64,000 nt of DNA, taken from contig CAVRQT010000003.1 of assembly GCA_963723515.1 (NCBI GenBank), forward strand, positions 800,001 through 864,000. Direction: 5' to 3'. The position numbers and the translations under genes were made by a program. Shown here one piece after another: positions 1 through 13,656 of the stretch. The notes beneath the pieces are model-generated. The model saw only the letters and a program-made list of their open reading frames with translations. It had not been told where the DNA came from and searched no databases. The number at the start of each line of letters is the position of its first letter. Position 1 is the first letter of the stretch. This DNA comes from Vulcanimicrobiota bacterium (GTDB lineage: Bacteria > Vulcanimicrobiota > Vulcanimicrobiia > Vulcanimicrobiales > Vulcanimicrobiaceae).

Positions 1-2405
1 CTCGCGCCAAACGGAACGGTGTAGGTTACGGTGAATTGACGCGGTGAATTCGGACGCGCGATCGTCGCGATTTGCTCTCCACCTAGCGTTGTGTATGGCA
101 CGGCGCCGACGTTGGTCGCAAAAATGCCGCCATAGGTATTAAAGAGATTATTGCCGGCAATCGTGAGGTCGCCGTGGGCCAAATGTAGATCGATGCCGGC
201 GTCGATCACCGTGTATGCCGGCAAGTTTTGCGAATTGTTGGCCCCGACATACTGCGCTGAGACGAGCCCTTCGACAATTGAATGCGGCGCCTTATAGTCG
301 AGGGTCAGCCCCGCTTTATGGAGCGGAGTATTCGGCAGCTGCGCTCCTGGGATGACGATCGAATATGGATTGTTGATCCGCGGATCGCTTGAATTCGCTT
401 TGGCGACGGTGATGTTGTAATACGGTTGCACGTTGAGGTTGCCGAAGTTGAAAGTGGCCGCTACCTGTGCGCCTTCGTAGATCCGCTGCACGCCGCCGAT
501 CGGCACGCTGAAGTAGACGTTTTGCGCGCCAAACGGCACATCTGGTCCCGCGTCGCATCCGCCCGCAGACTGGAAAACCTGCTCGACGGTCGTGAAATAA
601 TCCGGCGGCAAACTTGCGTTCAGAACGGTACCGTTAACCAGCGTCGGCAACACAACGCCGTTTTGCACTTGCCGGTAGACTTGTGCGCTCAAGAGCCCGT
701 TGCGAAAACTGTGCGCATAGCCGAGACGGGCCGACGTGGATGAACTTGCGGCGGGCTCATCGCCCGGCGCATTGCCGTATGCGACGTCGCCGTTGCAATC
801 GTATCGCAAGGATTGCGGATCGCTGAGCACGCCGTTACGGCCGACATGCGGCGCAACGCCGCCGATATCATACGGCGGCCGTGTACGTGTCGGCCGTAGT
901 CGGCGTCCACGTCGCCGCCACGCCGGCCAGGAGCGATGACGACGCATTGGACGCTTGGCTAAGCCCAAAGTGGTCGTTCAACTTGAGCTTGGCATTGGAA
1001 CGAATCGTGTCGTTGACCGTTAGACTGCTGTAGTTGCTCGTCGAAGGGGCGCTAACATACGGCGTGCGCCGGAGCTTATCAGCGGAGTTGAGCTCGTCGT
1101 CGTGCTTGTCGAGTTGGCGCTGATGCTGATCGTATGCCGCTCTTTTGCCGGCAGCGTCGCGTTAACGGAAAAACCTTTAGAAGTCGTATCCGTCAAGAAT
1201 CCAGTCGGATCGGGAACGCCGTTGAGATACCGGTTCAATAAATCGCGATCGAATTTGACCGAGTTTTGATAAACCGAGGCCTGCACCGCCGTTTGGCCGA
1301 TCAACGCGCTGTCAGTCAGCGCATACAACGCAAAGTGGCTGGCGATGCTATTATCGGGACCGTAACCGCACGGCAGAGGGCCCGTGATCTGCAAGCAGAG
1401 CAGCGAATTTGACTGGTTCGTATCAAGATACGTCGCACTCAACGTTTGCGATTGGCCGAGGCGATAGCGCAACTTCACGAGATCGCCTTGCGTGTCGTTG
1501 ATGCCGTCGTGTTCATAATCAAGACCGCTCGCATCAAGATATCGCAATCCGTTTGCGAGGCTCGGCGTGCTGCGCGACGTGTGCTGTACGGCGATACCGA
1601 GATTGCCGAGCGATCCCGTTTCTCCGAACGACCAGTACCCTTTGCCGTACGAACCGGCGCTTATGCTGGCTGTACCCTGCCACGACAGCGTCGGCTCCAG
1701 CGTGCGGAAGTTCACGCCGCCGCCTAAGCCGTTGGTTTGCGGACCAAACGAAACGGATGCGCCCCGAAAAAGATCGGAGCTAATCTGCGCGAGATTGCCC
1801 GCGGTTCCCGGAGCGTTCAGTGGAATGCCGTCGAGCGAGAGCGCGGTTTGACTCGGATCGTGGCCTTCGAGCGATACCGTTTGGGTTGCGTCCGTGTCGG
1901 CACTTGACGTCGTTACCGAAACGCCTGAGAGTTTATTGAGCGCGTCTGCAAGCGTATCCGAGAGCTTGCGTTGCGCGCTCGTGTCACCGATCGAGCTCGT
2001 TGAAATAGAGGCCGTGGAGTGAACGGTAACGCTTCCGATCTCTCTAAGCTGCTGGCTCTTGGCGAGCGAAACTGAAACCGTAACCGTCTTGCCGTTGATC
2101 ACTTCGAACTGGTCCGACGTGACGGCTTGGTAATCACGTTTGAAAATTCGAGCGGTGTAAATCCCATCCGGCACATCGGTAAATTTCACCGAACCGGTCG
2201 GACCGGAATACTCGCTCGTCATCACCGGGCCATTGAGCAAAACCCGCGCCATGTCAATCGGTGCCTTGCTCTGGCTATCCATAACATTGATGATGATCTG
2301 GCCGCTGTCCGCTTGCGCAAAGGCAGCAAAGGGCGCCGCGGCAAGGCTCATCGCGACGGCCAGAGTGAAGGTCAACGCTCGTTTGGTCAAGCTATGGCGT
2401 CTCAT
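1..2405 (-). CDS. TonB-dependent receptor-like protein with N-terminal carboxypeptidase-regulatory-like domain (frameshift near 1050; 3' end runs off the window)
   Basis: Signal peptide, 'DVPDGIYTARI' Ig-like domain and plug-like 'LADALNKLSGVSV...LDGIPLN'. A second frame continues to position 1 with a barrel-like C-terminus '...LPAYTVIDAGID...GNNLFNTY...PRQFTVTY'. Confidence 0.8.
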
Positions 2406-2497
2406 GAAATATTAAAAAATGCGCACACGGCGCGTTCTGCGCTAGTCTAGCGTGCCGAGTTTAGAGATTACTGTGATTAACGAAGAGAGCGCCAATG

Positions 2498-2674
2498 TGT
2501 CACGCTGGGCTCAGCGAAGCGCCACCACCCCTGTCACGCTGAGCTTGATCGAAGCGCCACCGCGCCTCTCACGCTGAGTTCATCGAAGCGCCACGATTAC
2601 GGATGCCCATCGATCCTCGACATTCGACGAGCTCGTGCAGCAAGCTCGGGACAGGCGCACTGCTCAGGGTGACA
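2498..2674. repeat. Cluster of REP-like palindromic repeat units
   Basis: Three degenerate TGTCACGCTGAG..CGAAGCGCCAC copies followed by an inverted GCTCAGGGTGACA. Confidence 0.8.
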
Positions 2675-2702
2675 GAGTTTTTGAAGCGGCGCCCGATGAT
2701 CG

Positions 2703-4112
2703 TTAGATTTTTATCGTGACCGTCGTACCGTGGCCAGGGGCGCTATCGATGCGAATGTCGCCACCTGCGCGATCAACGGCGCTTTTAGCAATCGCAAGCC
2801 CAAGACCCGTACCGGTAATCGCTCCCCGTTCGTCGCCCCGGTAGAAACGTTCAAACGCATGCAAGCGTTCTGACTCCGTCATTCCAGGTCCATCGTCGCG
2901 CACCATGATCGCCGTCTTGCCGTCATCACGCGCGGCCCGCAAATGGATCGGCGCGCCCGGTGCATACTTCAGCGCGTTCTCTACAACGTTCCAAAGCGCT
3001 TCGCCGAGTTCAGCGCGGTCTCCGACGACTTGCGACGCGCCGTCGACGCTGTAATCGATCTGGCGTTCGCTGTCGAGTCTTCGGGCGGCGTCGCATTGAC
3101 TGCGCAGCAATTCAGTGAGGTCGATCTGTTCTTGATGCGGCGGCGTTTCTGCGTCGAGCCGAGCGAGGCGCATCAAGCGATCGATCAGCGAACGCATATG
3201 CTCTTTTTCAATTGCCATCGTATTGAGAATCTGTTTGGCGACGTTCGGCTCGGCAACCGCACCACGGCGCAGCACATCGATGTATCCGGCAATTACAGTC
3301 AGCGGCGTGCGCAACTCATGGCCCGCATCGGCTACGAACTGACGCATTCGCTCTTCCGTTCGCCGCCGTTCGTCCATCGAGGCGGCGACATTCGCGGCGG
3401 CCTCATTATACGCACTCGTCAAGGATGCCATTTCTTCACCGTCCGCTAAGAGAAAACGCTGTTGGGCATATTCTCCGCTTGCTAAAGCATGGAGCGCTTG
3501 GGCGACTGACTGCAACGGGCGCAACGCTTGTTTTGAAAAATACCAGCCCAAGAGCCACGCGAGTGCGACCGCGAAAATCGCGATCGTAACGATGATCTTC
3601 CAGTATGGAAGCAACGCAACCCAAATAACACCCAGCGACGGCTCGAAGGCGACAAAGCCGCCGTTTACTTTGGCAAGCCCGATCGGCTCGCGATGCGGTC
3701 CACCCGGCCGGCCGAGCATCTCACGCATGATCATGCGCTGCGCAGGGTTTCCCTCATGCCGCAGCACTGGCGATAGGTTTCCCGGAGAGAGCAGCCGCGG
3801 GTGCAAGTCCTTGTCGCCGGCTAAATAGTGGCCTTGGCTGTCGAAGACCGCAATATTGAGCCCGATTCCGCTTAATTCGTCGATGATGCGCGGCGCGGCT
3901 TGTTTTAGCGACATGCCTTGCGACGCGTATTGATCGGCCAAAATCCGCGCCTCTTCGTGTTTTGCAACCAAGACGTCGCCGCTGAACGCGCCCAACTTCG
4001 AGACCAGAACTAATGACGACGCGATGATCACCATTAGCACGATCACGGCGAGCATCAGTGCATAGGTCGTCGCGAGCCGGGTTGCGATTGACTTATGCAA
4101 GGCCGTACCCAA
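2703..4112 (-). CDS. HAMP-domain sensor histidine kinase
   Basis: Two TM segments, H-box DAGHELRTPL, N-box NVVENALKY, DDGPG and GTGLGL G-boxes. Confidence 0.95.
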   Translation of the reverse strand: MGTALHKSIATRLATTYALMLAVIVLMVIIASSLVLVSKLGAFSGDVLVAKHEEARILADQYASQGMSLKQAAPRIIDELSGIGLNIAVFDSQGHYLAGDKDLHPRLLSPGNLSPVLRHEGNPAQRMIMREMLGRPGGPHREPIGLAKVNGGFVAFEPSLGVIWVALLPYWKIIVTIAIFAVALAWLLGWYFSKQALRPLQSVAQALHALASGEYAQQRFLLADGEEMASLTSAYNEAAANVAASMDERRRTEERMRQFVADAGHELRTPLTVIAGYIDVLRRGAVAEPNVAKQILNTMAIEKEHMRSLIDRLMRLARLDAETPPHQEQIDLTELLRSQCDAARRLDSERQIDYSVDGASQVVGDRAELGEALWNVVENALKYAPGAPIHLRAARDDGKTAIMVRDDGPGMTESERLHAFERFYRGDERGAITGTGLGLAIAKSAVDRAGGDIRIDSAPGHGTTVTIKI

Positions 4113-4769
4113 CGCCGCGCACCGTGCGCAGCATCGAATTCTCGCCGGCGGTGTCTAGCTTGTTTCTCAAATACGAGATGTACGTTTCAACGATGTTCGT
4201 GCCGCCTTCGAAGTCGTGGCCCCAGACAAGCTCGAGCAAGTGGTCCTTACTGAAAACTCGGCGAGGCTCGCGCATGAAGACGGCGAGCAGTTCGAACTCT
4301 CGCTGCGTCAGATCGATCAGCCGCTCGTTTCGATAGACTTCGCGGGTTTCCAGATTCAACGAGAGATCGCGCCAGCGCAGCGCGACATCTTCGATCAACT
4401 GCGGACGCCGTAAGGCAGCCGTCAGATCTCGCGATCAGCTCTTCGAACTGAAACGGCTTAACGAGATAATCGTCTGCGCCGCTCGTCAATCCCGCAACTT
4501 TATCGCCGAGCTCTCCTTTTGCCGTGAGCATCAGTACCGGCACATGCGGTAATCTTGCGCAGCATCGGCAGCAAGGCAAGACCGTCGATCTTCGGCATCA
4601 TGACGTCGAGCACGATGACTTCAGGCTCCCAGTCACGCACGAGCGTAAGCGCCTGCTGACCGTCGGCCGCCGTGCGCACCGCAAAGCCTTCGCGTTCGAG
4701 CCCAAGCTCGAGCATTTCTCGCACGAAGCGGTCGTCGTCGACGACCGCCACGCGTGATTTGGCACCCAT
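4093..4769 (-). CDS. OmpR/PhoB-family response regulator (frameshifted)
   Basis: Receiver VVDDD...[10 protein letters not shown]...MLTAK...[10 protein letters not shown] and w[12 protein letters not shown]...[12 protein letters not shown]...RTVRGVGY, spread over three frames. Confidence 0.93.
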
Positions 4770-4779
4770 CGTACCTACC

Positions 4780-5469
4780 TTAGGGGTGCATTTCGGGGCG
4801 CATATGCCCCATCGCTCCCATCAGCAAGTACTTGCCGGCGTCCGGCGTTTGATTCGCACCCATACCGAAGCGGCCGCGCATCGGCATCTGCTCGAACATT
4901 TTGGCTTGATCCGCATTCAGCAGCGGTTTGATTTGGTTGATGGCCGACGCATGAAGCGCCGTCATCTTTGAGTGCGCATCGTTGCCGATTGCGATAACGG
5001 ATTGCTTTTCGCTCGGTGAGAGGATCGCATCGATTTGTGAGACGAGCTTCTCGTGCTGCGCGCGCATCGCGCCGAATTTGCCCATGTCGGGATGCGGACG
5101 CTGTGCGTTCGGTCCCGATGGAGGCATCGCGGGCATCATGCGTTGCATCGAACCGCGTGCTTGATCGATGATCTGTTGCACTTTCGCACGGTGGTCGGCA
5201 GATAGTGCCGCCATTTCGCGATTGTGCGCATCTTCAGTGATCGAGCGCATCTGCGTCATCGTCGAGCGCATGATCGGTTGAATCTTCTGCCGTTGATCGG
5301 CTGTTAGGTTCAGGCGACCAGCAAAACCGTGCGGACCGCCCGCCGGGCCAGCAGCCGGAGCGCCGGGCATCGCAGCGCTCCCACCTGCGGGTGCGCCGCC
5401 TGTATTCTGTCCGCAGGCGGACATGGAAAGAGCTGCCGCCGCAAGGACGGCAATAAATAATGGCTTCAT
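4780..5469 (-). CDS. Spy/CpxP-like periplasmic lipoprotein
   Basis: Lipobox LSMSAC; repeated LNLTADQRQK / LSADHRAK / ILSPSEKQ / LLNADQAK (LTxxQ-like) motifs; Met-rich; directly upstream of the two-component pair. Confidence 0.7.
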   Translation of the reverse strand: MKPLFIAVLAAAALSMSACGQNTGGAPAGGSAAMPGAPAAGPAGGPHGFAGRLNLTADQRQKIQPIMRSTMTQMRSITEDAHNREMAALSADHRAKVQQIIDQARGSMQRMMPAMPPSGPNAQRPHPDMGKFGAMRAQHEKLVSQIDAILSPSEKQSVIAIGNDAHSKMTALHASAINQIKPLLNADQAKMFEQMPMRGRFGMGANQTPDAGKYLLMGAMGHMRPEMHP

Positions 5470-5513
5470 GACAAGATTTTCCATTGGCATCCTCAATGCT
5501 GGCTGAGAGCGGG

Positions 5514-5963
5514 CTAGGCGGCTTTCAAACCGCCTCGCCAAGCTTGGTAGCGATGCCGGGCGATGAGGGCTGCTCGCGAGACGTCTTCGAGAGGATGCCT
5601 GTGCAGCGTGACGCCGGCTGCCTCTATCCGTGCCATGATCTCTGCCGGTGGCTCCCAATGCGCATAGAGGTGAATTTCTGGTGCGCCCGTCGACTCGGCA
5701 ATGATGCGCACGAGGTCGTCAAAGCCGCATTCCCCTTGCGCTATGAGGCGAGATGCCACGGCGCCGTCAAATGAAGCCACGCTATAGCCGGAGACGACCG
5801 TCAAGAGCTGCCGCACTTCCTCAAGCGAGGCGCCGTCGAAGTCTACCAGCACGACCTCGGGCTCGTGGTCGCCGTCGAGCTGGGCGTGCAAGGTTGCGCC
5901 GATGATCTTGGCGGTTTCCCCGGTCTCAAGGATGGCGCCGCTGCCGATGAAGTACCCTTCCAT
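5514..5963 (-). CDS. Hypothetical protein
   Basis: 149-aa ORF from ATG 5963 with protein-like composition; no family recognised. Confidence 0.65.
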   Translation of the reverse strand: MEGYFIGSGAILETGETAKIIGATLHAQLDGDHEPEVVLVDFDGASLEEVRQLLTVVSGYSVASFDGAVASRLIAQGECGFDDLVRIIAESTGAPEIHLYAHWEPPAEIMARIEAAGVTLHRHPLEDVSRAALIARHRYQAWRGGLKAA

Positions 5964-6025
5964 GGTCACAGTGTGCGATTTCAGAGTGCCAACTGGGTGG
6001 CACTTTGCTAAGTGCTGAAAAGACA

Positions 6026-6244
6026 ATGCGGATCATAGCCTGCCTGGCGACGGTCATCCTGATACAAGGTTGCGCCCACCCGGCTGCCCATGGAACGCGC
6101 GACGGTAGTCTCGCTGCGCCTTCCGGCTACCGCTGCGATCAGGAGATCCCACCGCGCCTTGCAGCTGCGTGCCGACACTTTCGCCATATGCTCGCCCCGA
6201 CACCGCCGCCAACAACGCCGTTGCCACTCCGGAAGAAACGATAA
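6026..6244 (+). CDS. Small putative lipoprotein (paralog 1)
   Basis: MRIIACLATVILIQGC lipobox; YRCD...RLAAAC motif shared with the next gene. Confidence 0.6.
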   Translation: MRIIACLATVILIQGCAHPAAHGTRDGSLAAPSGYRCDQEIPPRLAAACRHFRHMLAPTPPPTTPLPLRKKR

Positions 6245-6289
6245 CGATGGAGCCCATCGCGATTTGACGCAGAACGATTGGGCTCGCAG

Positions 6290-6510
6290 ATGACTAATCG
6301 GTTAGCAGTTGTGGCACTCGCCATTTTGCTGATTGCCGGATGTGCGAGGTCAACGCCACGCGCAGCTCCACGTGGCGGCTCCGTTGCGCATCGTCCTTAC
6401 CGTTGCGATCGACTGCCTTCCCAGCGATTAGCCCCGCCTGCCACCGACGTAAGACCGGCGGGCTGGTCGGAGCATTGGTCCCACCGAAGCATCCAGCCCG
6501 TCGCAAGTAA
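6290..6510 (+). CDS. Small putative lipoprotein (paralog 2; probable one-base deletion near 6432)
   Basis: MTNRLAVVALAILLIAGC lipobox; YRCD...RLA. Adding one C to the C-run restores 'PACHRRK...RRK*' ending at TAA 6508-6510. Confidence 0.55.
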
Positions 6511-6514
6511 CTCG

Positions 6515-7122
6515 CTACGCCGTCGAGGCGAGCTGCGTCCTTTTCCGAGCACCTGACACGAGCAACGCCACCAGCTGATCGACGACCTCCGGATCCCATT
6601 GCGAGCCACGTCCGTGCTGCAGTAACTCCAGGCCCTGTCTAGCCGGAAGCGCTGCACGAGCTTTCGTGGACGAGATCATCGACTGAAATGCGTCGCTCAC
6701 CGCAAGGATCCGCGCCTCAAACGGAATGCTGTAGCCGAACAGCCCATCGGGATAACCCAGTCCGTCAAAGCGCTCGTGATGCGCACGAACGACAACGCGC
6801 AATGCTGCAGTGCGGGAATCTGGTTAAGGATATGTTCCGATGTCACGGGATGCGCCCGGAGTTGCTCGGTTTCTGTCTCCGTCAATGCGCGCGTATTGAA
6901 AACAACCGGATCGGATAGAGCGATCTTCCCCACGTCATGCACAAGCGCGCAGAGCTCAACGTAGGCGATCCCATCGCGCGACAGCCGCATCGCCGTTGCG
7001 AACCGCCGCGCCCATTGAGCCGTACCTTTTGAGTGCGCGTATGTCGTTTCGTCGCGTTCTTTCATCATCGCAAGCAAGCCCATCGCGACTAGAAAGGATT
7101 GCGGCATCATGCTGGGCGGCAT
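6515..7122 (-). CDS. Stand-alone HD-GYP domain phosphodiesterase (frameshift near 6800)
   Basis: RDETTYAHS, LVHDVGKI, HP, HHERFDGLGYPDGL, ARILAVSDAF, GRGSQWDP. Confidence 0.9.
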
Positions 7123-7128
7123 GTAATA

Positions 7129-7203
7129 CTAACCGAGATTCGGCGGCATTATCATGATCAAGTGATGCACAAGTGCGGCAAGACCCAACAAGATAAGATG
7201 CAT
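7129..7203 (-). CDS. Unannotated 24-aa hydrophobic peptide MHLILLGLAALVHHLIMIMPPNLG
   Basis: ATG at 7203 preceded by CAGGGAGGAGTTACC (strong SD); TAG at 7131-7129, 6 bp before the HD-GYP start. Confidence 0.7.
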   Translation of the reverse strand: MHLILLGLAALVHHLIMIMPPNLG

Positions 7204-7265
7204 GGTAACTCCTCCCTGAAGACGCCGAGTGTCATAATGTAACCACAGTACGGGTCCGTCGTCCT

Positions 7266-7281
7266 TAGCCAAAACTGACTA
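7266..7281. promoter_or_regulatory. Imperfect palindrome TAGCCA-AAAC-TGACTA, candidate LuxR-type activator site
   Basis: Inverted repeat with one mismatch; a minus-strand TACATT -10-like hexamer lies at 7241-7236. Confidence 0.45.
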
Positions 7282-7286
7282 TCAAT

Positions 7287-9916
7287 TTAGCGTATGAGGC
7301 CTTCTTGCCGCGCCATGGCAAGGGCTTCCCCTCGGCCACTGCAGCCAAGTTTGTCTATTACGCTTCGGATCTGTGCATGGATGGTATGGATACTGCGCCC
7401 GCGTTCGCTTGCGATTTTTTTCGCGGCGGTGCCGGCCGAAAGAGCTTCTAACACCTCGATCTCCGACCTCGTAAGCCCAAGAATCGCCTGTTGCCTCTGT
7501 TGACGTAACATGTGGAAAACGGCCTCAAGCAGTAATGCGTAGCCGCCGTATTCGTATTTCATGTAGCCACTTAGATCGGCATATAGCATTCTGTCATACG
7601 CTGCGCTCTTAGCAGCCTTAAGCAACACCACGCAAGCAGAGCACAACAATGCCGCGGAGGCGTTTCAGCAAGCTTCTGATTGCGGCGTAGCACTTGAATA
7701 CCATCGTGCTGCGCCCGAGCAGTCCATACGCTAAGCCGATCAGCGCTTCGCGAAGTGCAGCTGCTGAAATTCGTATCGCGAAGACGGCTCGATCTGTTCT
7801 TACGTCTTTAACGCCTGGTCCGCATAACGTAATGCTTCATCGCGCCTTCCATCGGCGCTAAGAAACACAGCGCACTCCGCTCGCCTCAGCGCTCCTAGCA
7901 CCACAAACGATTGCTTGTCGCACAAGCCGCATGTTAGCCGATAGGCCGCCCCAAAGTCTCCTCTCCATGCGAGGCGCATTGCGCGCAATGGTGAAATGAC
8001 TGCTGATCTGAATGGATCGCTCGTATGCAGTGCATCGATTTCATCTTCGAGCTCCTGCATTCGCTGCTCACGACCGCGCCGCGCTTCAATCTCATACATT
8101 TGAAACAACGCTGTCTGGCGCCCTAGTCGGTCGCCACCTTTCGCGGCGCATGAGGCATTCTGTTGCGTGTACCAAAGGCTCTTAGATACGTCCTCATCGC
8201 ATGTCATTTCCGTGACAGCCAAAACGCTGTAAGCTCGAGCCGCCAAGATATAGTAGCCGAGCTCCTCACAAACCCGAGCGGCTTCGGTTGAAGCGGCACG
8301 TGCTGTATCGTAGTCAGCCGTATAAAATGAGGCGAAACCAATTCGTTGCAGACATCTGACTCGGACGCCCTCATTGTCGCAGTCGTCCGCTAATTTAATT
8401 GCGCGTGGAATCAGTGCTTTGGCTGCGTCTATGCGGCCAGCCGTAGCGTGTAGGCTCGCTAGTGCAGCCATTGCTTCAGCACGAAGCCCGGACGGGAGTT
8501 CAGGCGCTCTGGATCAGAGGTTCCAGCGTTGCGATCTCGTTCTTGCCCTGGTTCATCATCAGAATCATCAGCTGAATTGCCGCGGATGCCTTAAACGTCT
8601 CATCCTCACTAAGAGCAATCGCACGTTTGTAGAGATGCTCCGCGCTGTCAAAACGGCCAGCCGCCATCTCTGCCGATGCACGGATCGCGAGCACGCATAG
8701 GATTGTGCGTCTGCATTTCGCTTGGCAAACTTAAGATAGCGCCGCTCACGACGTCACCATGGCCATGCTCTATAAGCTCTAGGCCGCGCCGTTCGATTAT
8801 CTCAAGCGCTTCATCCGCTGCATCAGCACGCGAGAACAATGCCAACGCCTGCGCATCGCGCCCGCTGCACAGTAGAGCTCGCGCAGCCTTCAACTGCACG
8901 CCTCGATACGCTACGTCGCCGCGCTGTCGTAGCTCGTATTGCAAGAAGTCGCGGAACAAATCGTGGCAGCGAAAGCGCTCTTCCGCTTCCTTATATATAA
9001 AGGCAACACGTTGGCGCAGGCGCTCAATAATCGTCTCGGCTCTCTGGATGCCGGCGGAGCGCAAGATCGCTACATCGATTTCCGGCAGAAAAGACGTTAG
9101 CAACAGCAGATCTTCTTGCTCAGGGCTTAGCGACTCGAAGACTTGCTCTGCAAGATAGCGGTAAATCTTTTCCCGCGTCTCGGTTTCCAGATGCTGCAAG
9201 TCGGCCGATCTTAACGTACTGCGCAACGCGAAGGCCAGCGCCGTTGGCCAGCCGCGAGTGAGCGCCAAGATCTGATTAAGCTCGTCATCCCGAACGATCA
9301 CGTGCGCCATTCGTGCGGCACTCCGCGCCTCGTCATAGGTGAATCGTAGATCCATCTCATCGACGCCTAATCCCGTGTCGCCGTAAGCCAACCAGGATGC
9401 GACGGGCAAATCCAATGTCGAACGCGTCGCGATGATCCAGCGAATTTTGGTTTTTGAGCGCTCGATAATCGACGCCACGAACCTGGAAACTTCGGGTTCC
9501 AGTTCTGCAACGTGTAAATCGTCGATCGCAACGAGGCCGTCATATTCTTGGATGTGCGCATACATCCAAATGGCGAGCTCCGTTCCGGGGGACGTTGCAC
9601 TCAGCGCCCCATCGAACGCCTCCGCCAGCGTGTTGCGCAGGTTAGGCGCAACCTCGCTAAACACGTTGACGAGACCGCGCACAAAACCAAGCAGCGTCGC
9701 ATTATCCGCGCGAACATCGTAGCGAAGTGTCGGACAATCGATCGTCGAGAGAAACTGTGTCAGCGCAACAGACTTGCCGTAGCCAGCCGGCGCGACGATG
9801 AGCGTAATGCGCTGTTGCGCTGCCTGCGCGATTCGCTCAACAATACGCTCGCGGTGAATCGGCGTGAAGACGCCGCCGGTGTCGATTCGACCATCAGACC
9901 CAACGGACCGAATCAC
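7287..9916 (-). CDS. MalT-like (LAL) STAND ATPase-TPR-LuxR HTH transcriptional regulator (several frameshifts)
   Basis: Walker A APAGYGKS, Walker B AIDDLH, TRGWPTAL, YLAEQV, FRCHDLFRDFL, TPR-like helical region, C-terminal LTRSEIEVL...TIHAQIRSVIDKLG LuxR HTH. Confidence 0.88.
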
Positions 9917-10000
9917 AAGTCGCGCTCGCTTAATGCCAAGCGTATGGCACTCCTGCCGCTCACATTATGTGTATAAAACTATCCACAGGATGTGCATACC

Positions 10001-10348
10001 ATGAAAAATTCGCTCGACCAATCGCTATCGAAGATGGAGGCATTGCTGCGTCAGGCAGCCTCGCTGGTCGGTGCGCTCTCTGATGCGCTAGCGACCCAGG
10101 CTCAACCGCAGATTGCCGATGAGAAGCAGGCAGAAAGCATCTACGCTAAGGCCCGACAGCGCCATCCGAATACCGGTAAACCGTGGAGCGGCGAAGCGGA
10201 CGAAGAACTGCGAAAGCTCTTCGAAAGCGGCAATACGATCGAAGACCTTTCGATTTACTTTCAGCGGACGAAAAACGGTGTGCGAGCGCGCCTCGTGAAG
10301 CTCGGCCTACTCGAGGCGACTCAATTTCAACCAAGATTTGTGGCCTAA
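10001..10348 (+). CDS. Small protein with C-terminal HTH-like domain
   Basis: 'HPNTGKPWSGEADEELRKLFESGNTIEDLSIYFQRTKNGVRARLVKLGL' resembles a Myb/SANT-like HTH module. Confidence 0.75.
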   Translation: MKNSLDQSLSKMEALLRQAASLVGALSDALATQAQPQIADEKQAESIYAKARQRHPNTGKPWSGEADEELRKLFESGNTIEDLSIYFQRTKNGVRARLVKLGLLEATQFQPRFVA

Positions 10349-13300
10349 TGATCTCGCTGTTCGATGTCGTCACCTTCATCGGCCGACGTCGGCGGCTTTG
10401 TAGCGGACGTGGTCGCATGGTCTAGCGGCCGCATATTCAGCCGGACAAGCTGCGCGTTGAGTCCGCCCAACCCGCTGACAAAGGCACTCACGGCGTGCAC
10501 GCGTTCATTCGTGAGCGCGTGCAGCGCTCGTCCTTCGCGCTCTTCTTCCGCTGTCGGTCGCCTGAAGGTGTCGAACAAGAAAAGCTGCGCCTGCACACGT
10601 TCGCGTAGCACATCTTTGAGGAAGTCGTCGTCCTGATCCGCTTTAGGATCGGAAGTCAACGTCGCTTGCAAGGCGGCAGCGCGCGTTCGGGCCGCCGCCA
10701 GTTGAGAGACCAATGCCGGATTGCTGCCGTCCTTTTCCAGCGCATTCTTGCGCGCGTCGCTCTCTCGTTGAATCGTGGACAGCGTGTTCAACGCCGTGTC
10801 AATGCGAGACCAATCGGCGTACATTTCGTGCTCTAAACGATAGCGCGCGATATGATCCAATAGCGTCGCATCGTCACGCGGATCACGATGGACCGTAATC
10901 GGGGCACGCAACGTGCGGTTGTCCACATGAAGCATTATCGAATAAGTCCCTGGCACAACGGTCGCACCACTCTCAAACTGATTCCAATCACCGGTTGAAT
11001 CCCACGCGACCGGCTTGTCTTCGGTCAAATCCCAAGAGAAACGGTTGAAGCCCGCTTGATTCGTCAGGTCAGGCATGCTCTTTCCATTTTCGGTATGCGA
11101 GCGAAATGTGTGCACAACATTGCCGCGCAAATCAACGATCTCCGCGCTCGGGTTGTGTCTTGCCGGCGTACTCAAATAAAATGTGATGATCGCACCGTAC
11201 GGCGGGTTCTCCCCGGCGCCGAGCAAGTTATTGCCACCCGAATGTATCTCGTAGAGATACGCCGGTCGCACCGGGAAGACGTACGTTCCGGCGACTCTTG
11301 CGCGTGATAGCAGCTGAAGTGGCGTCGCGTCATCAAGAATCCACGCACTACGCCCGTGCGTGCCGATCAGAATGTCATCAAAATCAGGCTGTACGCGAAT
11401 GTCGCGCACGGACGCAGCGGGTAAATTCTGCCGGAACGATTGCCAACGCGCTCCACGATCGAAGGAGACGTAGAAACCAAATTCCGTCCCAAGGTACAGG
11501 ATCGATCCATTGCGCGGATCCTGTCGGATGCTGCGCGCATAATCGTCCGCCGGTAAACCGGTCGTAATCGTGTTCCAATGACGTCCGAAGTCAGCGGTTT
11601 TGAACACATGCGGCGCCTTGTCGCCGATCATGTGCCTGTCGTAAATGACGAACGCCTCGCCTGGATGTTGATTCGATGCGGAGATGCTTGCAAAACGGCC
11701 GAACGGTCGAATGTTGGTCGGTGTAACGTTGCGCCAATGTTTGCCACCGTCGCGCGTTAGCTGCACGAGACCATCGTCCGTGCCGACCCAAATTTGGCCG
11801 CGCGCAACTGCCGAAGGCTCGATGTATAAGATCGTCTCCGATGTTTCTGCGCCGGTTCCCTCGCGCTGCGCGCCGCCGGTCATCACCTCATGCGACCGGA
11901 GGTTGCGCGTCAAATCGGGGCTGATAACCGCCCAATGTTGGCCACGGTCAGATGATTTGAAAACGACGTCGCCTGCAGCGTACGCAACATGCGGATCAAA
12001 AGGATCAAAAGCGAGCGGCGTCTCCCAATTAAAGCGGTAGCGCAACTGCGAGGGTGACGTGGCATTTTGGTCGCGCAAATAAGGCGACGCGGCGATGGTC
12101 TGCTTCGTCCGCTCGTTGAGAATGTCGATCTCGCCGCCATTGTTACCGCCGCCGCTCGTCAACCATGTGTAATTCCGATTTGCTGGATCGGGAATCACCC
12201 AGGTGCCATCACCACCGCCGACGTCTTCCCACTGCGCCGCGACGATGCCGCGCGGCGTGAGCGAATGGTTCGGCGCGCACCAAACGCCGTTGTCCTGCAG
12301 CGGCGCGCAAACCCGATACGGATTTCCACGATCGTAGCCGATGTGGTACAGCTGCCCGATCGGAATCGTGTTGTGCCAATTCCACGTTGCGCCGCCATCG
12401 CGTGAAAATGCAACGCCGCCATCGTTGCCTTCGATAATCCGTTTGCCGTCTTGCGAGATCCACATCGCGTGGTGATCGCCGTGAATGCGCTCGCCGGTCT
12501 TCTTCCACGTTTTTCCACCATCATTGCTGACGACAAGGTGTACTGAATCCGACCAAAGATGGTCTTCGTTTGTCGGATCGACGTAAAGGCGGCTGAAATA
12601 AAACGGACGCTGATTGATATTGCTGTCGCTCGAGATGAGTTGCCAACTCTCGCCGCCGTCGTCTGAACGCCACATGCGCCCCTGACTGGATTCGATTACG
12701 GCATAAACGCGATGCGGATCCGACGGCGCTACGGCCAGGCCGATTCGACCAACTGTATCGGTGGGCAATCCGTGGCCCTGCAGTTTTTGCCAGGTGGCGC
12801 CGCCATCAGTGGAGCGAAAAATTCCATCGTCCGGACCGCCGCTATTGGAAGACCAACCGGTGCGCCGGTATTGCCACATGCAGGCAAAGATAACGTTCGG
12901 CGCTCGCGGGGAACTCGCAAGATCGCAGCCGCCGCTCGATGGACCCAGATACAATGTTCGCGTCCACGTTAGGCCGCCGTCCGTTGAACGATAGATTCCG
13001 CGCTTTGTGCTATCTGCAAATGCATCGCCGAGCGCTGCGACAACAATCGACCGTGGATTGCGGGGATCGACAAGGATCTTTGCGATTGAAGCGGTGCCTT
13101 GCAAACCGGAAAGCGCCCATGTTTTTCCGCCGTCGCGAGAAACGTAGAGCCCGTTTCCTGGAATGACATCGTTGCGCGGATTCGCCTCACCCGTGCCGGC
13201 CCAGACAACGTCCGGGTTTGCCGGATCGAGCGCCAGCGCGCCAATCGCCGCCACGGGTTGGTCATCGAAGAGCGGCGTCCAATCGGCTCCGCCGTTGGTG

Positions 13301-13554
13301 CTTTTCCAGACGCCGCCGCCGGCGGCGCCGATATAGTAGATCGAAGCGTCACGATCACTACCGACGACGGATGTCAAGCGGCCGCCGGCACTTGACGGAC
13401 CGACATTGCGAAACGTCAATTGCGCAAATGGCGATGGCGTAGGACTCGGCGTCGCCGATGGCGCGGGAGAAACTTTCGTTTCGGCGGCCAACGCGCGGCT
13501 TCCAATAAGGGCGCAGAACAACGCCACAACGCACAAGATGTAACGCACGATCAT
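10345..13554 (-). CDS. Secreted BNR/Asp-box (VPS10/sortilin-like, GH74-like) beta-propeller protein
   Basis: Signal peptide and PSATPSPTP linker; many S-x-D-x-G-x-T/S-W Asp-boxes; HGDHHAMWI, YRFNWETP and GTHGRSAWILDD motifs. Confidence 0.9.
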   Translation of the reverse strand: MIVRYILCVVALFCALIGSRALAAETKVSPAPSATPSPTPSPFAQLTFRNVGPSSAGGRLTSVVGSDRDASIYYIGAAGGGVWKSTNGGADWTPLFDDQPVAAIGALALDPANPDVVWAGTGEANPRNDVIPGNGLYVSRDGGKTWALSGLQGTASIAKILVDPRNPRSIVVAALGDAFADSTKRGIYRSTDGGLTWTRTLYLGPSSGGCDLASSPRAPNVIFACMWQYRRTGWSSNSGGPDDGIFRSTDGGATWQKLQGHGLPTDTVGRIGLAVAPSDPHRVYAVIESSQGRMWRSDDGGESWQLISSDSNINQRPFYFSRLYVDPTNEDHLWSDSVHLVVSNDGGKTWKKTGERIHGDHHAMWISQDGKRIIEGNDGGVAFSRDGGATWNWHNTIPIGQLYHIGYDRGNPYRVCAPLQDNGVWCAPNHSLTPRGIVAAQWEDVGGGDGTWVIPDPANRNYTWLTSGGGNNGGEIDILNERTKQTIAASPYLRDQNATSPSQLRYRFNWETPLAFDPFDPHVAYAAGDVVFKSSDRGQHWAVISPDLTRNLRSHEVMTGGAQREGTGAETSETILYIEPSAVARGQIWVGTDDGLVQLTRDGGKHWRNVTPTNIRPFGRFASISASNQHPGEAFVIYDRHMIGDKAPHVFKTADFGRHWNTITTGLPADDYARSIRQDPRNGSILYLGTEFGFYVSFDRGARWQSFRQNLPAASVRDIRVQPDFDDILIGTHGRSAWILDDATPLQLLSRARVAGTYVFPVRPAYLYEIHSGGNNLLGAGENPPYGAIITFYLSTPARHNPSAEIVDLRGNVVHTFRSHTENGKSMPDLTNQAGFNRFSWDLTEDKPVAWDSTGDWNQFESGATVVPGTYSIMLHVDNRTLRAPITVHRDPRDDATLLDHIARYRLEHEMYADWSRIDTALNTLSTIQRESDARKNALEKDGSNPALVSQLAAARTRAAALQATLTSDPKADQDDDFLKDVLRERVQAQLFLFDTFRRPTAEEEREGRALHALTNERVHAVSAFVSGLGGLNAQLVRLNMRPLDHATTSATKPPTSADEGDDIEQRDH

Positions 13555-13656
13555 CTTTTTCGTGGTCTTTGTTGCCTTGCGCCTGTCGAAGGAGCAATCC
13601 ACAACCCGCAATCGCGTCGCCAAGAGGTTTCGTGATGAAGTGCCGTAGCAAGCCGC

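Follow-up and report, generated by a model that had tools for sequence, protein, structure and literature searches.

Does a 24-codon open reading frame (ORF), lying between the gene of a MalT-like regulator and that of an HD-GYP phosphodiesterase, encode a peptide signal that the regulator itself senses? The locus that raises this question spans positions 6515 to 9916 of a stretch of 64,000 nucleotides (nt) of Vulcanimicrobiota DNA, which we refer to, at its full length, as the window. The original prediction, made from the window alone, described a peptide-receptor pair outside the RRNPP family, built on a regulator with a STAND NTPase, a tetratricopeptide-repeat (TPR) sensor and a LuxR-type helix-turn-helix (HTH), which would induce both its own peptide and an enzyme degrading a cyclic dinucleotide. 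To our knowledge, peptide signals that genes encode and cytoplasmic receptors read have been described almost exclusively in Firmicutes and the phages that infect them; we likewise know of no ligand for most MalT-like/LAL STAND regulators, and of almost no experimental genetics in the Eremiobacterota. The cassette is real, and it is stronger at the family level than the single window showed and weaker in the window itself, where it is broken; the interpretation first placed on it is a plausible reading of the sequences, partly supported by the comparative evidence.

In what follows, G000 is the genome of the window and G001 that of a sister species (locus L017), both included in genus g1. The parts of the cassette in the window are these:

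7287..9916, minus strand: MalT-like STAND NTPase/TPR sensor/LuxR-HTH regulator, a pseudogene as assembled (Pfam, tblastn against G001, profile of 19 orthologues)
8648-9916; about 8494-8697 (second frame); 7800-8510; garbled 7640-7800; 7287-7649, minus strand: fragments of the regulator (tblastn against G001)
7265..7282, minus strand: putative operator, an imperfect and partly degenerate palindrome at the position of the family's 18-20-bp palindrome CTAGT-N8-ACTAG
7236..7241, minus strand: -10-like hexamer, 32 nt past the palindrome centre, a spacing common to the family
7211..7215, minus strand: Shine-Dalgarno (SD) sequence GGAGG of the small ORF, read directly; an SD-like motif precedes the small ORF in 48 of 59 loci
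7129..7203, minus strand: small ORF, 24 codons and a TAG, encoding a hydrophobic stretch and then a tail that contains Pro-Pro and ends in Gly (read directly and from orthologues)
6515..7122, minus strand: HD-GYP phosphodiesterase, short form without N-terminal domain, frameshift at about 6797-6802 (HD_5, comparison with G001)
6697-7122 and 6515-6802, minus strand: the two HD-GYP frames, with HD_5 profile positions 7-99 and 102-170 on separate ORFs

Conservation of the small gene

The small ORF lies where it had been placed, with its ATG at 7203-7201, a TAG stop codon and the GGAGG at 7215-7211, 7 nt from the ATG; 83 nt separate the regulator's TAA (7287-7289) from its start, and 6 nt separate its TAG from the ATG (7122) of the HD-GYP frame. 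In many genomes of this family, Candidatus Baltobacteraceae, which comprises uncultured soil bacteria of the phylum Eremiobacterota/Vulcanimicrobiota, the regulator gene adjoins that of the HD-GYP protein. Loci were gathered by DNA and protein searches of relatives, from public contigs and with a regulator-profile search, and the 82 that contained both genes yielded 59 distinct regulator/small-ORF/HD-GYP loci. Among the 34 loci first inspected, a Gly-terminated hydrophobic ORF was detected automatically in 29 and by eye in the remaining five (21-35 codons, same place), which makes 34 of 34; the count of distinct loci then rose to 44 and, after wider collection, to 59. Genomes G022, G036, G045, G046, G058, G112, G116, G125, G135 and G149 count only in the initial relative-search tallies. 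The script that picked small ORFs chose wrong frames at L055, which was read by eye, and at L153 and L156, which were left out of the co-variation and peptide tallies.

A chance ORF is ruled out by the excess on the sense strand: a hydrophobic ORF of at least 18 codons occurs in the regulator/HD-GYP spacer of 54 of the 59 loci on the sense strand versus 13 on the antisense strand, and with an SD-like motif added the counts are 48 versus 4. The G001 spacer holds a 24-codon ORF that shares 12 of 24 residues with the window peptide, the last five included, and by eye these last five codons differ between G000 and G001 at third positions only. Over 16 equal-length pairs of at least 45% identity, which are not independent, differences number 137, 95 and 194 at codon positions 1, 2 and 3, and in the same non-independent pairs uncorrected synonymous divergence (pS) is 0.57 versus 0.31 for nonsynonymous divergence (pN). 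Judged by comparison across loci, the small ORF is a genuine protein-coding gene under purifying selection, conserved in position at the 59 distinct loci. From the regulator stop to the small-ORF start the distance is mostly 84-137 nt, on the same strand, close to the 83 nt of the window.

No Pfam or NCBIfam model matches the small-ORF peptides; seven of ten peptides looked up were absent from a collection of 15 billion proteins, the other three being unnamed or hypothetical there. Full-text searches of open-access papers and preprints, judged from the matches listed, turned up no description of such a cassette.

Distribution and variants

At a profile threshold of E 1e-60, the regulator matches 98 of 113 sampled genomes of family f1, and all three of family f2, but gave no match in the 84 genomes sampled across 19 further families of this phylum. 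The scan of homologues for adjacent small ORFs, which had been proposed as a check, gave a divided answer: alongside the 59 HD-GYP-linked loci, 15 of 25 loci of genus g80, which lacks the HD-GYP gene here, retain a small ORF (20-21 residues, near-invariant tail) between the regulator and a gene that we call gene X, and the other 10 have none. Since the small ORF is retained in those 15 loci after loss of the HD-GYP gene, the core pair would be regulator and peptide. Among the loci inspected, none combines an HTH-bearing orthologue and an HD-GYP gene without a small ORF.

Several side observations concern paralogues and sampling. Genomes G067, G118, G147 and G287 of genus g60 have tandem regulator paralogues about 70-80 nt apart, with the small ORF and the HD-GYP gene after the second only. 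The subtilase-like lipoproteins encoded next to other paralogues carry tandem Pro/Gly-rich 8-residue repeats right behind the lipobox Cys. The cassette-bearing contig of L070 is titled Limnocylindria and the sister-family peptide P0002 is deposited under Dormibacteraeota; genome search places both genomes in or next to the order of the Baltobacteraceae, which leaves mis-binning, labelling or transfer as explanations.

Anatomy of the peptide family

Across 75 loci we tallied 74 distinct peptides of 20-50 residues (median 24; 61 have at most 26). Their common plan is a short beginning, an apolar stretch and a tail. In 47 of the 74, Met is followed by an aliphatic residue and then Thr or Ser; the uninterrupted run of apolar or small residues has a median of 15 residues and a commonest length of 14, and is mostly 14-19 long, with a very apolar hydropathy (KD(14) 1.9-3.5). 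Charged residues are absent from 35 peptides, and only three contain Lys or Arg. The tail is rich in Pro and Gly: Pro stands among the final eight residues of 71 of the 74 and Pro-Pro among those of 52, while 46 end in Gly. Of the 28 peptides with Cys, 20 have it where the apolar run ends, in a lipobox-like setting; the other 46, the window peptide among them, contain no Cys.

The tail of 5-8 residues is the most constant part within a genus (near-invariant over 14 g80 loci with 13 distinct sequences) and changes between genera, while the apolar part varies freely. In one member (L034/L060) the 8-residue tail unit occurs three times in tandem and a long apolar run is missing, and the forms of genus g50, at 36-45 residues, have a linker between the apolar part and the tail. 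This multiplication of the tail, together with the tail-plus-linker forms, points to the tail as the functional unit. In the sister family f2, both loci inspected (L175, L176) encode a 49-50-residue form in which we recognise, by eye, a basic n-region Arg, an apolar core, a canonical lipobox Cys and a Pro-rich mature part of 30 residues. The f2 form therefore looks like a lipoprotein-type precursor and, since the apolar run has the length of a signal core, the tail probably ends up outside the cytoplasm.

Four further identities for the peptide were dropped: a precursor of a ribosomally synthesised and post-translationally modified peptide, as no modifying enzymes occur in the 4.5-kb flanks; a type-I toxin, as the ORF lies inside an activator-controlled operon and no antisense feature was seen; a sortase, exosortase or GlyGly-CTERM sorting signal, as motif and apolar segment come in reversed order; and a force-sensing arrest peptide, as the chain is too short to emerge from the ribosome tunnel.

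Operator and promoter

Between the regulator stop and the small ORF, most loci contain an 18-20-bp palindrome of the type CTAGT-N8-ACTAG, centred about 70-85 nt before the ATG. Our promoter scan covered 43 loci, of which one yielded no palindrome and 10 no hexamer, in several cases because the script took another inverted repeat. In 26 of the 32 loci where a hexamer was picked, it is -10-like (mostly TATCCT-like) and starts 31-32 nt past the palindrome centre, which puts the palindrome at about -43, as in a class-II activator site recognised by a dimeric LuxR-type HTH. The G000 palindrome retains 5-nt inner arms with one mismatch and a 32-nt phasing to the hexamer. At this position the loci of a distant clade (L067-L070) carry a perfect palindrome of another sequence, which would be expected had operator and HTH changed in concert.

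Within each of five genomes, CTAGT-N8-ACTAG occurs once (three genomes) or twice (two genomes), always including the cassette locus; its frequency is not above that of a reversed control pattern. The regulator seems, on this pattern, dedicated to this one promoter. Because a conserved palindrome and promoter precede the small ORF, the small ORF and the HD-GYP gene very probably form the target operon of the regulator. A search of Rfam (E up to 0.1) over window positions 4000-10500 and four related loci returned no RNA element.

Regulator and phosphodiesterase

The regulator proved, as predicted, to be a MalT-like STAND protein with a TPR sensor and a LuxR-type HTH, according to Pfam, NCBIfam and its own profile. 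The 19 full-length orthologues have 864-881 residues. Against the NCBIfam MalT model NF003420 the score is 146 bits (E 1.6e-42) versus a cut-off of 537, so that the protein is not the MalT equivalog. A profile of the 19 orthologues matches the MalT NOD structure 8bob over profile positions 20-407 (E 2.6e-21), as well as the archaeal TPR sensor PH0952 and many LuxR-type HTH domains; over positions 459-640 it resembles LGN/Pins, KLC, IFIT and RapF, with E values from 1e-9 to 1e-4, so that peptide-binding TPR proteins are among its matches (RapF about 1e-4), the Pfam TPR_12 matches lying below cut-off. GerE is found on the last 57 residues (E 1e-8), and the Walker-A residues GxxGxGK are invariant in the orthologues. 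Invariant columns are concentrated in the first 420 positions and rare in 420-810. Neither the regulator nor the HD-GYP protein has a convincing membrane span.

In the HD-GYP protein, the metal-binding and GYP residues (HHExxDGxGYP) are invariant in 14 orthologues. An AlphaFold2 model has a predicted local distance difference test score (pLDDT) of 88, and its best Foldseek matches are the c-di-GMP (cyclic diguanosine monophosphate) phosphodiesterases 4mcw (E 3.5e-9), 9rbz (c-di-GMP bound) and 4r8z; by motif and modelled fold, the enzyme is a regular HD-GYP and a probable c-di-GMP phosphodiesterase. Its description as a stand-alone, sensor-less HD-GYP fits genus g1 and a few others. Elsewhere the orthologues are 330-residue proteins carrying a conserved, all-helical N-terminal domain of about 130 residues, for which Pfam and NCBIfam hold no family, and comparison of the two forms indicates that the short protein of G000 and G001 is derived by a genus-specific deletion.

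Two side observations belong to the enzyme. All 14 orthologues, and likewise the G000 frame, end in the same short Ser/Thr-Ala tail, which may be a degradation or recognition tag. Among paralogues, L181 (G103:C48) encodes at 867-4316 a 1149-residue fusion of an HTH-less STAND-TPR protein with HD-GYP, and in L166, L180 and L185 the HTH-less gene is directly followed by a separate HD-GYP gene whose product has that N-terminal domain too; a link of this Rosetta-stone type suggests that the paralogues control the enzyme directly, at the protein level.

Function of the peptide

Tentatively, and with less than even confidence, we read the small ORF as encoding a pro-peptide that is exported and sensed by the TPR region of the regulator, which would then induce the peptide and the c-di-GMP phosphodiesterase. 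The 20-25-residue product would be the pro-peptide, its apolar stretch taking it into or across the membrane; the Pro/Gly-rich C-terminal tail would be released and sensed by the fast-evolving TPR sensor; the regulator, like MalT, would multimerise with ATP and activate the promoter; and the output would be more peptide, in a positive loop, and an HD-GYP enzyme that lowers c-di-GMP. We infer that the regulator activates the small-ORF promoter and, with less certainty, that the peptide is its ligand.

Four lines of evidence favour the peptide as ligand. Regulator and small ORF persist where the HD-GYP gene is lost (genus g80); the apolar run has signal-core length and the f2 form resembles a lipoprotein precursor; tail multiplication in L034 and the linker forms single out the tail; and the sensor evolves fastest, with tail distance tracking sensor distance. 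Mean p-distance is 0.67 for the regulator sensor, 0.49 for the HTH and 0.37 for the HD-GYP domain. The co-variation of peptide and sensor region that the original prediction had asked for came out positive: tail distance correlates with sensor distance once HD-GYP distance is removed (partial Mantel r 0.33, permutation p about 0.0005, over 48 related loci, a liberal test), and the reverse partial correlation of tail, sensor and HD-GYP distances is negative. This set left out six loci with a regulator of fewer than 420 residues, others with an HD-GYP protein of fewer than 260, and L153 and L156. Complex prediction with the full 875-residue regulator and the 24-residue peptide gave a score of 0.11 (mark 0.32) and is neutral either way.

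This leads to the points that weigh against a sensed peptide. A partial Mantel test over related genomes overstates significance, and tail and sensor, both fast-evolving, may simply track recent divergence. The family-f1 peptides are without the basic n-region of Sec or PptAB substrates, and the flanks examined show no exporter, no processing protease and no importer of the Opp type next to the cassette. In the 10 g80 loci without small ORF the regulator stands alone and runs directly into the gene-X leader, and one g60 locus likewise has a regulator and no small ORF. HTH-less STAND-TPR paralogues are directly followed by, or fused to, HD-GYP with no small ORF between, and full-length regulator paralogues (L167-L171, L177) are followed, with no promoter gap, by the gene of a 410-430-residue subtilase-like lipoprotein; with these paralogues lacking it, the small ORF would travel with the promoter and could be an output only. 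Finally, regulator and HD-GYP gene are both broken in this window.

The alternative that survives best, which we consider rather unlikely, is that the peptide is an output: a small effector, embedded in the membrane or held there by a lipid anchor, which the cell would make once the regulator fires, with a target such as the downstream HAMP kinase (as an MgrB- or SafA-like connector) or the HD-GYP protein. The small ORF is indeed the first gene behind the operator-promoter of the regulated operon, and in many loci, G000 included, a cluster of gene X, response regulator and HAMP kinase follows the cassette; in g80 the small ORF persists beside this kinase cluster without HD-GYP. Small membrane proteins that control sensor kinases are established (PMC8404706, PMC12648545). 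The kinase cluster is not universal, however, as the neighbours differ at L065 and L068. Although the peptides are very apolar, their apolar run, with a median of 15 residues and 14 in the largest class, is shorter than one expects of a membrane span, hardly any flanking charges are available to set topology, and the triple-tail member L034 is implausible as a membrane helix. Regulators without small ORF, as described above, would be at home with an output, whereas it fits poorly that within genera the tail is kept while the apolar part is free to vary, and that the tail co-varies with the sensor and not with HD-GYP.

A cis-acting leader is a considerably less probable explanation. Here the ribosome would pause, in dependence on elongation factor P (EF-P), at a Pro-Pro shortly ahead of the stop and thereby adjust how the downstream gene is translated or transcribed, while the peptide as such would play no part. 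Diprolyl motifs stall ribosomes without EF-P, and Pro-Pro within the last eight residues of 52 of 74 peptides agrees with this, though 22 of 74 lack it there. In G000 the stop and the HD-GYP ATG are only 6 nt apart and the HD-GYP gene shows no SD of its own, and short spacers recur elsewhere; many HD-GYP genes, on the other hand, have their own SD and variable spacing, and in g80 the next gene is about 100 nt off, behind its own palindrome. A leader would need neither the conserved apolar N-terminal stretch nor the conserved residue after the prolines, and Rfam elements are absent from the leaders at E up to 0.1.

Somewhat less probable still is a relic, the 5' end (signal peptide plus Pro/Gly linker) of a once-controlled lipoprotein gene kept for its promoter and translation start: the paralogue-linked 410-430-residue lipoproteins do begin with a signal peptide, lipobox Cys and Pro/Gly-rich repeats, and the f2 form resembles exactly that N-terminus, but the frame is preserved in 59 HD-GYP-linked and 15 g80 loci, third-position bias and pN below pS indicate purifying selection, and the g80 tail is near-invariant (13 distinct sequences from 14 loci), while an origin of this kind is compatible with any present function.

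Returning to the sensed peptide, a broader picture may be drawn, which we hold to be doubtful: peptide communication in the Baltobacteraceae on a STAND (MalT-like) receptor, in which an unannotated pro-peptide of 20-25 residues, with a lipoprotein signal as its ancestor, would give a Pro/Gly-rich oligopeptide. This oligopeptide would license the regulator to oligomerise and tie signalling between cells to the breakdown of c-di-GMP, with lineage-specific pairs of peptide and sensor as pherotypes and genomes with the regulator alone as eavesdroppers.

State of the cassette in the window

As mentioned before, the cassette is broken in the window. The domain identities assigned to the flanking genes were right (Pfam AAA_22/STAND, TPR and GerE upstream, HD_5 downstream), whereas their presumed intactness was not: both are frame-disrupted, and this copy cannot function as a working circuit as assembled. 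With the intact G001 orthologue (889-codon frame, L017) as reference, the G000 regulator matches over residues 1-419 in frame 1 (74% identity), 420-487 in frame 2 and from 482 in frame 3 (51% identity), and tblastn places the changes of frame near 8697 and near 8500. Its ORFs are 8648-9916, 7800-8471 and 7287-7649. Frame 3 is interrupted by a TAA at 7800-7802 and, over the interval from about 7640 to 7800, by three further stops; within this interval the similarity shifts to another frame and then returns. Frame changes and stops thus amount to at least four disruptions, and the window holds no intact regulator ORF. The HD-GYP gene is 85-89% identical to that of G001 across two frames, one base being deleted relative to G001 at about 6797-6800, immediately 5' of the catalytic HHE..GYP block; the catalytic motif is still encoded, but behind the frameshift. 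The small ORF is still whole, as are its SD and the greater part of the promoter.

We consider it likely that the local cassette is a decaying remnant, because the assembly is not riddled with frameshifts, the indels lie outside homopolymers and a paralogue on contig C2 is shattered too. The alternative, that the disruptions are assembly errors and the local cassette is really intact, is unlikely. The four contigs and 88% completeness of G000 are compatible with a long-read metagenome assembly, and at least seven disruptions cluster in about 6 kb, yet the small ORF, gene X and the kinase are intact. Of all bases in the genome, 90% belong to ORFs of at least 100 codons, 21 ORFs reach at least 1000 codons and rpoB is a single 1277-codon frame; the two indels that can be localised between G000 and G001 fall outside homopolymer runs, and substitution stops are present besides. 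The second MalT-like regulator paralogue of G000, at about 317600-320150 of C2, has fallen apart into at least five ORF fragments that do not share a frame. Reads of one public DNA run, in which a small share of the sequence words occurs, gave two near-identical 151-nt contigs at 9461-9820 and fragments of relatives, none covering a frameshift site, and a search of public reads listed no RNA run with words of this window.

Beyond the cassette, the following features extend the picture downstream:

5986..6003, minus strand: GC-rich 18-nt perfect palindrome preceding gene X, read directly; the same element stands before gene X in the g80 loci
5517..5963, minus strand: gene X, a conserved 149-residue protein, intact (tblastn, 40% identity over 151 residues to the g80 protein)
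4096..4760, minus strand: OmpR-type response regulator in three frames, a pseudogene as assembled (intact orthologues elsewhere: Response_reg and Trans_reg_C, Pfam)
2703..4112, minus strand: HAMP/HisKA/HATPase histidine kinase, intact (Pfam)

The spread of the response regulator over three frames equals two disruptions, the adjacent HAMP kinase being whole. Gene X, the OmpR-type response regulator and the HAMP kinase are frequent downstream neighbours in the family, and an ABM-domain protein and SARP-type regulators are frequent upstream ones; no Pfam or NCBIfam family covers gene X (149-151 residues). In the g80 loci (L172-L174, L183, L184, L186-L205) another inverted repeat pairs with the start codon of gene X, a hint that the gene is controlled at translation. 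Upstream of the regulator, both G000 (10345-13623, minus strand) and G001 (L017 1-2148) encode a 1092-residue BNR/Sortilin-repeat protein.

Significance

The cassette consists of four conserved parts, namely a STAND-TPR-LuxR protein, a palindromic operator, a gene of 20-50 codons and a c-di-GMP phosphodiesterase, and is a concrete system that can be tested by synthesis. It addresses both peptide signalling outside Firmicutes and the ligands of MalT-like/LAL regulators and, if the proposed circuit were true, cell-cell signalling would be coupled directly to c-di-GMP breakdown in an uncultured lineage outside Firmicutes. The small-ORF family also shows how much annotation hides, with seven of ten peptides absent from the protein collection. 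For G000 itself, the cassette, the second regulator paralogue and the response regulator appear to be decaying together in one of the smaller genomes of the family.

Comparison with known systems

RRNPP systems of Firmicutes, such as Rgg/SHP and NprR/NprX, are the closest in layout, a cytoplasmic TPR transcription factor encoded beside a very small ORF (PMC10075063). The same source gives as hallmarks a pro-peptide of 10-100 residues, export by Sec or PptAB, a receptor of 250-500 residues, TPRs and adjacent genes. The 74 distinct peptides described here (20-50 residues, median 24) fall within the size range and the genes are adjacent (gap mostly 84-137 nt, same strand), whereas the receptor, at 864-881 residues in the 19 orthologues, exceeds the stated length; the label "non-RRNPP" was thus well chosen. 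As for TPRs, the receptor shows them at the level of weak similarity. The active part of an RRNPP pro-peptide is C-terminal, like the tail proposed here, and intragenic duplications of the mature part are reported (PMC10075063). SHP-type pro-peptides, at about 20 residues, are hydrophobic and unrecognised as Sec substrates (PMC10075063); the small peptides here are similar in size and hydrophobicity. In contrast to RRNPP receptors, whose HTH is N-terminal or absent, the receptor here has a STAND NTPase and a C-terminal LuxR HTH; the phylum is Eremiobacterota and not Firmicutes, and the peptides are without N-terminal basic residues. At best, then, the cassette works like an RRNPP or Rgg/SHP pair; it is not a member.

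With MalT and the LAL proteins the regulator shares a STAND NTPase (NOD) and a C-terminal LuxR/GerE HTH, the order of NOD, arm, TPR-like sensor and LuxR HTH, and a size near 900 residues; it belongs to the broad MalT/LAL STAND class without being the MalT equivalog. The presumed logic would also be common, a ligand in the sensor licensing ATP-dependent multimerisation. Unlike MalT, whose ligand is maltotriose, the proposed ligand is a gene-encoded peptide. MalT boxes are asymmetric, while the operator here is an 18-20-bp palindrome.

Enterococcal sex pheromones are short hydrophobic peptides cut from the end of full-size lipoprotein signal peptides. The likeness lies in the lipobox-like Cys of 20 of 74 peptides and in what reads as a full lipoprotein signal in the f2 form. 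The whole gene, however, has only 20-50 codons here, and the conserved part comes after the Cys, where a Cys exists.

MgrB and SafA resemble the product of the small gene in being small hydrophobic proteins induced by a transcription factor and encoded near a sensor kinase; they differ in length (47-65 residues), in their full membrane span and in their functional periplasmic part, as against an apolar run of 14-19 residues and a tail of 5-8. The enzyme, lastly, belongs with the HD-GYP phosphodiesterases by its HD and HHExxDGxGYP residues and its fold, at the level of the family, and its modelled fold, metal and GYP residues agree with those of PmGH (4mcw), PA4781 (4r8z) and DvhD (9rbz). Unlike these, most orthologues here carry the 130-residue helical domain in place of a receiver or PAS domain, a domain that genus g1 has lost.

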